A stretch of DNA of 64,000 nt. It comes from a virus. Position 1 is the first letter of the stretch. Each line of letters starts with the position of its first letter. Below are positions 3,761 to 26,839 of this stretch, one piece after another. A program made the position numbers and the translations under genes. Under the pieces are notes generated by a model. The model saw nothing but the letters and a program-made list of their open reading frames with translations. It did not search any database and was not told the origin of the DNA. The stretch covers positions 64,001 through 128,000 of the IMG/VR virus record IMGVR_UViG_3300036766_002288; one strand, written 5' to 3'.

Positions 3761-3834
3761 GGCACAGTAGGCAATTAGCAGACCACTTTCGCTTAAAACG
3801 AGAGATGCTGTCAGTGCAAATCTGACCTGTGCTA
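3761..3834 (+). tRNA. tRNA with Leu(TAA) anticodon, short variable loop
   Basis: GGCACAG/CTGTGCT, A73, CTTTCG-CTTAAAA-CGAGAG, T-loop TGCAAAT. Confidence 0.85.
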
Positions 3835-3838
3835 CTTT

Positions 3839-3912
3839 GGCGACGTAGGCAATTAGCAGACCACTTAGACTCAGACTCTGAGATGCTGTCAGTGCAAGTC
3901 TGACCGTCGCTA
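3839..3912 (+). tRNA. tRNA with Leu(CAG) anticodon, short variable loop
   Basis: GGCGACG/CGTCGCT, CTTAGA-CTCAGAC-TCTGAG, T-loop TGCAAGT. Confidence 0.85.
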
Positions 3913-3918
3913 CTTTTT

Positions 3919-3992
3919 GGCAACGTAGGCAATTAGCAGACCACTTTCTTTCAAACGGAGAGATGCTATGGGTGCGAGTCCCATCGTTGCTA
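3919..3992 (+). tRNA. tRNA with Leu(CAA) anticodon, short variable loop
   Basis: GGCAACG/CGTTGCT, CTTTCT-TTCAAAC-GGAGAG, T-loop TGCGAGT. Confidence 0.85.
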
Positions 3993-4175
3993 CTATGATA
4001 CCTAGACGTTTCAGAATACTATCTTCGTCCTCAATTATGACAGAATTAGGGATCAAAGACACCTATGGTGTTTTCTTTCCTGACTTTGGCACATTCATTA
4101 TAATGTCTGAAGAAAGAGGAATAGATGAGTTTGATGGTTGTCCCGAAGATGTTGAGTGGTTGGACTAGATAGTAT

Positions 4176-5827: not shown

Positions 5828-5910
5828 GCGGTAGTGGCGGAACGGTATACGCGCTTGCTTGAGGTGCAAGTCCCTTAAGTGGGATGTGGGTTCGACTCCC
5901 ACCTACCGCA
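5828..5910 (+). tRNA. tRNA-Leu(GAG), class II
   Basis: GCGGTAG/CTACCGC, CTTGC-TTGAGGT-GCAAG, long variable arm. Confidence 0.95.
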
Positions 5911-5912
5911 CT

Positions 5913-24555: not shown

Positions 24556-25213
24556 GGATAAATACCTTATGTTTTGTGTAATAACACCTGTTTTTGATGG
24601 TTGTGCTGAATCTGTAAATCTCTTAATTCAGGATTTACTGAGACAGACCTTCCCTAATTTCCAACAAGTGTTAATTAGCAACGGTCCTTCGCCAAGAATA
24701 AAAGAATTAGTAGAAAAAGTCAATGATAATAGATTCATTTACAAAGAATATTATCCACAAGAAGATACATCAACACCGCCTAAACTAATCGAGAATATAG
24801 GTAAAAGAAGAAATCAGTGTATGAGCAGTTTTGATGCAGACAGATACTTCTTTTTCGACGCTGATTTAAAGATATTAGATGAGGATTTCTTTAACAAGAC
24901 CAGCAAAGTTCATGATAAGGCAGACATACTTATAAGTAAAATCATATGTTATGGCAGAATATTGCCAGAAATGCCTATTAAAAAAGGACACATTGACTTG
25001 GCAAATTATTCATTTTCTAGAAAAATAGCTCAAAAATATAGTTATCCAACGGTATACGAACAGGCAACTGATATCTCATTTGATTGGCGGTTCTACACAA
25101 AGATAAAAAACGAAGGGAATTACTTCACTGATATTTTGTATGCCCACAAAGACGGACATAATAGCTATCAGAACCTTAGTTTGTTATACATAAAATGGGT
25201 AAACACTAGATAG
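24554..25213 (+). CDS. Glycosyltransferase family 2-like
   Basis: VITPVFD...LLRQTFPNF..VLISNG...RNQ...FFFDAD (DxD). Confidence 0.8.
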   Translation: MDKYLMFCVITPVFDGCAESVNLLIQDLLRQTFPNFQQVLISNGPSPRIKELVEKVNDNRFIYKEYYPQEDTSTPPKLIENIGKRRNQCMSSFDADRYFFFDADLKILDEDFFNKTSKVHDKADILISKIICYGRILPEMPIKKGHIDLANYSFSRKIAQKYSYPTVYEQATDISFDWRFYTKIKNEGNYFTDILYAHKDGHNSYQNLSLLYIKWVNTR

Positions 25214-25523
25214 GCCATCTAACTAAGTAAAGATTAAACAGCCAGTCGATCATGGCTGTATAGTAAACAACTACACCCAGGAACATAATATAAACACAAT
25301 AATCACTTTCTTTATAATGATAGCAGACAATAAATGACGTGTAGACAACTACTCTACTAACCCAAACGGCGGTATATATACCAAACACTTTGATGCAATA
25401 TGACATCAATGGGAAAGTTTCATTTTCCCATTGATTTCCAATGTAACGTGTGGTAAGCTCCATGTCTATTGTGTGTATTAGGACTAAAAGTAGAAGAAAC
25501 AACCAGAAAAGAAAAGTTTTCAT
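25206..25523 (-). CDS. Small integral membrane protein
   Basis: Three hydrophobic segments; HTIDMELT..GNQWENE motif. Confidence 0.6.
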   Translation of the reverse strand: MKTFLFWLFLLLLVLIHTIDMELTTRYIGNQWENETFPLMSYCIKVFGIYTAVWVSRVVVYTSFIVCYHYKESDYCVYIMFLGVVVYYTAMIDWLFNLYLVRWPI

Positions 25524-25554
25524 CTCTACTATATAAGGAATAGGAGATAGTAAA

Positions 25555-26491
25555 ATGAATAAGAAAAACAAAAAACCAGAAGTAAATCTTGCAAATCAAG
25601 TCCCCCAATCCTGTCTTTGACAATTCTAATGAAATCATCCTAGAAATTCAGTTTGGAACAGGTGGGGAAGATAGCAAACTTTTCACCTATGACCTGTTCT
25701 CAGCATACGTAAAATACGCAGAACGAAACGGACTAAATGTAGAAATTTTAAATGACGAAAATGGCCACATCGTTGCCCAAGTTAAAGGAACCAACGCTGG
25801 TCAATATTTCAGAAATGAAACAGGTAAACATATAGTCCAACGAGTCCCACCAACAGAGTCTAAAGGACGAAGACAAACCTCCGTCATCTCTGTTGCTGTA
25901 CTACCACTACCACCTGAGAATAAATATAAACCATTACCAGATAACGAGTTAGATATAATTGCTCAATGTGGTAGTGGCCCAGGTGGGCAGCATCAGAATA
26001 AGTCGGCAACGACAATAAGGATGAAGCATTTACCAACAGGGTTATCTGTTCATATAGTAGGAAGGTCGCAATTAGCGAATAAAAAGGAAGCTTTAAAGAT
26101 ATTGACTACGAAGGTCAATGAGAAGTTCATAACTGATGAAACCGAGAAGCATAATTATCTGAGAAGAAAAACCTTGGGGGATGGTGCTAGGGGTGATAAG
26201 ATAAGGACATACAACTTTATTGATTCCAGGGCTACTGACCATAGGTTCAATATAAAAACTGGCAACATTAAAGGGGTAATGCGTGGTGATTTTACCTTGC
26301 TTTACCCTAAAGAAGAAGTTAGAATAGAGCCTAAATTCATGCACATTGCTGATGCCAGATGTTTAGAACTCAGTAAGGGTGATGCGATGACCGAGAACGA
26401 AGAAAAGCATACTGACGTATGTGATTGGTGTTTGGAGTATGTTTTGGATGGCAAAAAACCATCTCATTCTGCGCCTTCAAAAATAAATTAA
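25555..26491 (+). CDS. prfA: Class I peptide chain release factor, RF1-type (PxT), lacking domain 1; probably expressed via +1 frameshift at 25615-25621
   Basis: ILEIQFGTGG, ETGKHIVQRVPPTESKGR, GPGGQHQN (GGQ), KIRTYNF; SD-led 21-codon 0-frame segment ends CTT TGA C. Confidence 0.85.
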
Positions 26492-26509
26492 TATCCCTAA
26501 ATATCTGGT

Positions 26510-26839
26510 ATGATAAATTACTGGATAGAACGAGCAGAAGAAATCATTGAAAAGGAAGTGGTCCTAGTAAAAAACTCAGGAGAGACGAGAATGTGGTTTG
26601 ATAAAATGTTCTCGTCTCTCCCGATTATTTACCCTAACAAAAAGCCATCACGACCAGATGAATTTACGCCTCGAATAGGCTCTGCCAAACATTTAAAACT
26701 GACTCGTTTTGGCATAGAAGCAGTTTTAAAAACACATAGAAAATATCAAAGACTTAATTTCTATGTCCTTCATGATAAGATTAATCAGCCACATGAACCA
26801 TTTTGGGTAATTTTTTACAATGGACAAACTCATATTTGA
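26510..26839 (+). CDS. Hypothetical protein
   Basis: TAAATA 6 nt upstream. Confidence 0.55.
   Translation: MINYWIERAEEIIEKEVVLVKNSGETRMWFDKMFSSLPIIYPNKKPSRPDEFTPRIGSAKHLKLTRFGIEAVLKTHRKYQRLNFYVLHDKINQPHEPFWVIFYNGQTHI

Follow-up and report, generated by a model that had tools for sequence, protein, structure and literature searches.

A Phage Gene for an RF1-type Release Factor without Domain 1 Is Probably Expressed through a prfB-type +1 Frameshift

The analyzed window comprises 64,000 nucleotides, positions 64,001 to 128,000 of the virus record IMGVR_UViG_3300036766_002288, and stems from an uncultured phage of huge size. Between positions 25,542 and 26,491 of the window, the plus strand carries a gene for a class I release factor (RF) that is distributed over two reading frames. 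The gene is preceded by the Shine-Dalgarno (SD) sequence AGGAGA (25542-25547), located 7 nt 5' of an ATG at 25555. From this ATG, a basic, Lys/Asn-rich leader of 21 codons is read in frame 0 (25555-25617), giving the peptide MNKKNKKPEVNLANQVPQSCL, which ends in Cys-Leu. The leader runs into the putative shift cassette TGT CTT TGA C (25612-25621), with TGT as the E-site codon, CTT (25615-25617) as the slippery P-site codon, TGA (25618-25620) as the frame-0 stop, and C (25621) in the +4 position. The +1 frame comprises 290 codons (25619-26491), which encode RF1-like domains 2-4 and a C-terminal extension and are closed by a TAA at 26489-26491. Upstream, a TAA at 25583-25585 bounds this RF frame, so that its first open position is 25586. 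The sole start-like codon that it contains before the conserved core is a TTG at 25589-25591, 10 codons 5' of the shift site and without an SD. In-frame readthrough of the TGA meets TAA and TGA within four codons. After a +1 slip on CTT-T, GAC (25619) would occupy the A site, and the predicted transframe product has 311 amino acids with the leader as its putative N terminus.

The surroundings of the site were inspected for further signals. An SD-like stimulator 3 nt upstream of the CUU is absent at the window site, where AATCC precedes TGT CTT. Folding of the region 25540-25700 gave nothing beyond shuffled sequences (z = -0.34), and the idea of a structural stimulator was dropped for this reason. 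Because the site has neither type of stimulator, its frameshift efficiency may be modest or low. The Rfam scan of 25300-26700 returned only chance miRNA-like matches, and no convincing promoter of the RF gene emerged from a scan for promoters and terminators. On the minus strand, a divergent hydrophobic ORF of 121 codons (25206-25571) overlaps the SD and start of the RF leader with its 5' end; this DNA is conserved in the relative L001 (about 85% identical to the window), which leaves the two genes with a very short common control region. The sequence CTT-T is found again within the RF frame of the window. The phage encodes a tRNA-Leu(GAG) on the plus strand (5828-5911; ARAGORN), which would read CUU; it lies within a general Ser/Leu tRNA array and is context only, given that any host would supply such a tRNA. 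Three tRNA-Leu genes identified by ARAGORN at 3761-3993 are only 75 nt long and have no long variable arm.

The encoded protein was assigned to the class I release factors of the bacterial type and, within these, to the RF1 subfamily. Pfam searches detected PCRF (PF03462, 91.6 bits) and RF-1 (PF00472, 76.3 bits), both above cut-off, and the GGQ catalytic motif was located at 25982-25990 by alignment and sequence reading. The recognition tripeptide is of the PxT type and not SPF. In the NCBIfam ranking the RF1 models came first with 219 and 209 bits, followed by RF2 (prfB) with 146 bits. Domain 1 is absent and the full four-domain architecture is not present: the prfA model is matched at positions 102-332 of 347 only, and for this reason the 219 bits stay below the prfA equivalog cut-offs of 400 and 423 bits. 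The best match to a solved structure was RF1 from T. thermophilus (Tth), residues 105-335 (E = 4e-46), and sequence identity of this kind already fixes the predicted fold of the window protein. The models for PrfH (RF-H, TIGR03072; 67.8 bits, cut-off 166.65) and ArfB (20.3 bits, cut-off 100) did not reach their thresholds. ArfB consists of about 140 amino acids with a GGQ domain and a C-terminal tail, whereas the window protein contains the codon-reading domains 2 and 4. PHROGs held no family for the short RF form; the best match there was a full-length profile of unknown function.

The decoding residues were compared in alignments with the family and with Tth RF1. The motif G-T-G-G-E-D-S at the tip of helix α5 (25655-25675), which from RF1-ribosome structures we take to be the element that reads the first base (U1), has Asp in place of Tth Glu-119. 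In the codon-recognition loop (25847-25882), composed of PPT (25847-25855) and G-R-R-Q-T-S (25865-25882), the equivalents of Tth Gln-181, Pro-184, Thr-186, and Thr-194 are kept, and the His-193 equivalent is Gln. Across the family, the Glu-119 equivalent is always Asp, and the His-193 equivalent is Gln in about 60% of the proteins. Judged by these residues, the stop specificity of the factor, with PPT, Gln at position 193, and no domain 1, looks RF1-specific. The C-terminal extension of about 60 residues (26312-26488) carries conserved Cys/His residues (C...H...CxxC), is restricted to the window and the relatives closest to it, L001 and L002, and had no match in Pfam; from its residue pattern it may be a small metal-binding module.

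Relatives of the gene were collected in two rounds. A first scan yielded nine viral loci with 49-84% identity together with the 595-kb phage record LR756511, and all nine had a leader, a CTT-stop, and an RF frame. The set grew to 195 loci, anchored by local tblastn, when viral, metagenome, and genome collections were scanned with profiles; 113 of these loci are unique domain-1-less forms. In the close relatives, a short leader with ATG start lies one base behind the RF frame and ends with Leu-stop on CTT; the leaders comprise 7-35 codons, are of the M-S/N-K-K type, and end in C/R/W-L. In-register junctions of CTT-stop, rarely GTT-stop, before the core were present in 72 of the 113 short forms, compared with 2 in the wrong register. 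One junction was found in 51 loci, two in 20 loci, and three in 1 locus. Two of the matches, L047 and L125, belong to the recoded clade described below and are probably chance GTT-stop matches, so that the true number of genes of the frameshift type is nearer 70. The shift device occurred in 51 clusters at 70% identity and in 23 clusters at 60%. In L076, L084, and L034, GTT TGA replaces CTT TGA just before the match start, and the L084 site has AGGGGG at the prfB spacing. We know of no description of tRNA-Val re-pairing on UUU as a variant of prfB. The leader of L069 contains a 9-nt tandem repeat that abuts TGT CTT TAG C; frame 0 reads it as (Gly-Ser-Thr)n, the RF frame as (Leu-Ala-Ala)n.

The remaining short forms are organized differently. 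About 26 loci combine a direct ATG start with a conserved in-frame TGA. They form the sister group of the frameshift-gated genes (L099-L135 and L011-L013), likewise have no domain 1, start directly in the manner of MKRVIEIRAAEGG, and carry the TGA about 32 codons into the gene; they probably belong to TGA-recoded phages, in which even the RF1 gene has to be read with the recoded TGA. In four loci (L021, L064, L072, and L037) the leaders (MKNQ.., MKRR..) and the RF core share one frame, which a TGA interrupts between them, about 20-40 nt ahead of the match start (1201; 331 in L064). The phage of L021, a complete genome of 572 kb, follows the standard code, and its in-frame TGA would therefore need UGA readthrough, which, as far as the sequence tells, would be a second kind of termination-sensitive gate. 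The rest are direct starts, contig edges, and genes of CPR bacteria with a partial domain 1. In a FastTree phylogeny, 107 short phage factors lay on one side of a branch with support 99, opposite the full-length bacterial RF1; the frameshift-gated genes made up 63 of the 70 rows of the main clade plus a separate small clade, and the recoded direct-start genes formed a third clade. Frameshift-gated short RF genes were also found on contigs of metagenome-assembled genomes assigned to Pirellulaceae (L136 and L139-L142), Parcubacteria (L137), Nitrosotalea (L138), and Eubacteriales (L160). These loci could be prophages, mis-binned phage contigs, or hints at hosts. The nearest relatives of the window beyond L001, L010 and L018, have two sites, TAA or TAG followed by TGA, with segments of 11-18 codons, and the single 21-codon leader of the window may have arisen from such segments by fusion and loss of the first site.

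The anatomy of the shift site was analyzed for 94 sites against a background of 188 CTT codons taken from within these genes. The slippery codon was CTT in 89 and GTT in 5 sites. As frame-0 stop, TGA was used 50 times, TAG 32 times, and TAA 12 times, and C followed in the +4 position in 67 of the 94 sites. TGT occupied the E-site position in 39 sites (41%) and in none of the background codons (p about 4e-22). An SD-like element of the GGAGG/GGGGG kind was located exactly 3 nt before CTT in 51 sites (54%), compared with 5 of 188 in the background (2.7%; p about 3e-24). Several sites exhibit the exact layout of prfB, among them L009 with AGGGGG-N3-CTT-TAG-C in two copies. Tandem sites were present in 21 loci, mostly spaced by 43-52 nt, in the orders TAG>TAG, TAG>TGA, TAA>TGA, TGA>TGA, and TAA>TAG and once as TAA>TAG>TGA; the middle segments of about 10-17 codons contain no start codon. 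The stop type flips between proteins that are at least 70% identical, and one cluster at this level holds TAA, TGA, and TAG. No association across the family was found between stop type and recognition loop, considering the tripeptide and the H/Q alternative at the Tth-193 position.

This arrangement closely resembles the autoregulatory +1 frameshift of prfB, the gene for RF2, which consists of an SD, a 3-nt spacer, and CUU UGA C (Craigen and Caskey 1986; surveyed in PMC12421855 and PMC5009743). There, the peptidyl-tRNA-Leu re-pairs from CUU to UUU while a slowly decoded stop fills the A site, and slippage rises when the cognate factor is scarce (PMC5009743, PMC12421855). As in prfB, the sites of the phage family place the slippery CUU directly before a frame-0 stop, commonly with C at +4, and the functional protein, a class I release factor, is encoded in the +1 frame after a short leader. 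About half of the sites share the SD-like element at the same 3-nt spacing, and the next codon in the window, GAC, is that of E. coli prfB. In contrast to prfB, the phage product is of the RF1 type and has no domain 1, and the shift site therefore precedes domain 2 instead of domain 1. The phage leaders are unrelated to the RF2 N terminus, tandem double or triple sites are frequent, and TGT is the preferred E-site codon. The phage stop can be TGA, TAG, or TAA, whereas the prfB site has TGA in 98.6% and never TAG in 8,164 genomes (Prince et al. 2025, PMC12421855). The window itself has the CUU-stop with a +1 ORF and the weak context provided by the +4 C; unlike prfB, it has no SD-like stimulator, and the combination of UGA with an RF1-type product does not give a self-closing loop between stop and factor.

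Comparison of the window with L001 was used to follow selection on the two frames. In the RF frame 3' of the site, 80 of the differences were synonymous and 19 non-synonymous; read in the leader frame, this stretch gave 2 and 93. In the leader, which is too short to prove constraint on frame 0, 3 synonymous and 5 non-synonymous differences were counted. A single-base break of frame near the 5' end resembles an indel error, but the identical break at the same motif is repeated in about 70 assemblies that are independent of each other and derive from many samples. Strong purifying selection acts on the downstream frame, which argues against a pseudogene. An origin as pseudogene or assembly error is thus extremely improbable and effectively refuted by the comparative data. 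An alternative genetic code was also considered and rejected: under table 11 the ORFs cover the 187-kb record normally, its 175 gene ends comprise TAA 96 times (55%), TGA 56 times (32%), and TAG 23 times, and in-frame readthrough of the TGA at the site soon meets the further stops mentioned above. The real gene ends of the phage avoid the shift context, with TGA-C in 3 and CTT as last codon in 2 of the 175.

The factor might also be made without any frameshift, with the leader as a separate uORF and the RF frame started either at TTG 25589 or by re-initiation after the leader stop. The position of the TTG in the RF frame and the overlap of the leader stop with that frame, as in translational coupling, are compatible with such a route. 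However, the stretch of L001 equivalent to the TTG contains no start codon. No ATG, GTG, or TTG occurs in the RF frame before the core in 48 of the 72 loci, and only 3 loci have one with an SD. The start-less middle segments of the tandem-site genes speak against independent starts as well, and coupling leaves the conservation of CTT, TGT, the +4 C, and the SD at 3-nt spacing unexplained. We regard this route as very unlikely. The gene is a two-frame gene joined at TGT CTT TGA C, and junction, register, and flanking signals are conserved in about 70 diverged relatives; the recurrence of the junction in register, in 72 of 113 loci compared with 2 in the control register, is far beyond chance. 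On this evidence, a programmed +1 frameshift of the prfB type probably gates the synthesis of a phage-encoded RF1-type factor without domain 1, to which we assign a probability of about 0.7. The sequence-only reading of the window that preceded this analysis had proposed such a shift at CTT TGA C. Its coordinates for the AGGAGA, the ATG, the leader end, and the +1 entry into the long frame all hold, its assignment of an RF1-type factor without domain 1 from PPT and GGQ agrees with the prfA and prfB scores, and its doubts about the TTG were borne out by the missing SD and the lack of conservation. The check proposed with it, whether homologs are continuous or the motif is not conserved, turned up neither, with motif and register kept in the relatives counted above. 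The absence of a stimulator was seen correctly for the window but does not extend to the family, about half of whose sites carry one.

By the mechanism of prfB, ribosomes would start at ATG 25555, translate the 21 codons, and pause with peptidyl-tRNA-Leu on CUU while the A site holds UGA, a stop that is weak in the context of the C after it. Either termination would then release a 21-residue peptide, or the tRNA would re-pair on UUU and translation would continue with GAC to the 311-residue factor. The two outcomes compete, and slow termination at that stop should therefore raise the output. Because the stop is UGA and the reading residues are of the RF1 type, the gate of the window should report the RF2 capacity of the host and not the level of the phage factor. 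One use could be load balancing: the UAA (55%) and UGA (32%) gene ends of the phage would load RF2, and more RF1-type factor would then take over UAA. This use is plausible because 55% of the phage gene ends are UAA, which is served by either factor. Where a relative has UAG or UAA at the site, its factor would limit its own synthesis directly through this device, and tandem sites would multiply two probabilities, leading to a lower basal output and a sharper response. The cross-wired RF2 sensor proposed in the sequence-only reading fits the window, with its UGA and RF1-type product, but it is not a design principle of the family, where relatives also use the RF1-specific TAG as well as TAA and the stop flips between near-identical proteins.

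The free variation of the stop type fits a simple attenuator as well as a tuned sensor. The frameshift could be real and yet serve only to keep a toxic-prone RF at a low, constant level, with a nearly neutral stop identity and with tandem sites that just lower the level further. Stop flips among near-identical proteins, uncorrelated with the recognition loop, would be expected in that case; the window site has no stimulator, and RF overexpression is harmful in B. subtilis (PMC12421855). Against this, any CUU-stop site is kinetically coupled to the termination rate, which makes some sensing unavoidable. The strong selection of the +4 C and the common SD stimulators suggest tuned competition and not mere weakening, and a weak promoter or start would be cheaper. 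A fixed attenuator is possible but unlikely. Still less probable is a relaxed or altered specificity, by which the phage factor would read UGA besides UAA and UAG and every site of the family would close a loop of true self-regulation, like that of prfB. Such a factor could accommodate the use of all three stops among proteins at least 70% identical, the deviation of two decoding positions from canonical RF1 (Glu-119 to Asp and His-193 to Gln), and the missing domain 1. However, the equivalents of Gln-181, Pro-184, Thr-186, and Thr-194, which set RF1 specificity in the solved complexes, are conserved, and termination at UGA would be counterproductive for the TGA-recoded phages that carry the sister clade.

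Beyond the prfB-type gate of the window, the family as a whole might be viewed as a programmable gauge of termination capacity, a tentative and rather doubtful extension. The choice of stop would set the host factor that is monitored, with UGA reporting on RF2, UAG on RF1, and UAA on both. Stacking of two or three sites would give AND-gates and steeper responses. The domain-1-less phage factor, possibly with altered specificity or independent of RF3, would take over termination from host factors that are saturated, depleted, or attacked during infection.

Among viruses, the class I RF gene of Mimivirus and Megavirus offers the closest parallel. This gene, of the eRF1 type, requires frameshift and readthrough, and it was interpreted by the authors as a scheme of autoregulation resembling the bacterial one (Jeudy et al. 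2012, PMC3521657). In both cases a large virus encodes its own termination factor in a gene interrupted by internal stops that need recoding, and some of the relatives described here have an in-frame UGA instead of, or besides, the shift site. In contrast to the window, the Mimivirus/Megavirus factor belongs to the eukaryotic/archaeal eRF1 lineage, the virus is eukaryotic, and the shift sequences are different. Its recoding was shown experimentally, whereas that of the phage gene is predicted. Phage-borne RF1-type factors are also found in the Jade phages, where RF1 is part of a "code change module" of TGA-recoded genomes; the report describes phage RF1 and RF2 genes and does not mention frameshifting (Borges et al., bioRxiv 10.1101/2021.08.26.457843). 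Unlike the gene of the window, whose phage uses the standard code, the RF1 genes of recoded phages start directly at ATG and have no shift site. According to the passage of PMC3711429 that cites Baranov et al. (2006), PrfH (RF-H) is an RF homologue without domain 1 that is paired with RtcB. The window factor is likewise a class I RF homologue without domain 1, but it differs from PrfH in its far higher score with the RF1 than with the PrfH model and in keeping a PxT-type tripeptide. To our knowledge, PrfH genes are not frameshifted.

The prfB frameshift is the textbook example of a gene that measures its own product by recoding, and it is regarded as unique to RF2. In the survey of more than 12,000 genomes by Prince et al. 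(2025, PMC12421855), no programmed frameshift was found in prfA. All CUU-stop cases in RECODE are prfB according to the PRFect paper, and GeneTack lists the RF2 cluster alone. Atkins et al. (2016, PMC5009743) state that an RF1 counterpart of the prfB frameshift is unknown and name the eRF1 gene of Mimivirus as the single example from viruses. No publication on a frameshift-gated RF1-type phage gene was found in the searchable literature, which covers few subscription journals, so that its status as unpublished is provisional. The phage family has the prfB cassette on an RF1-type gene, with all three stops, often in two copies and in some members exchanged for an in-frame UGA. Gene callers systematically mis-annotate such genes as truncated or start-less. 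The family provides natural variants for studying the influence of stop identity, E-site codon, and SD spacing on the efficiency of +1 frameshifting, and it suggests that huge phages regulate termination factors rather than just carrying them.
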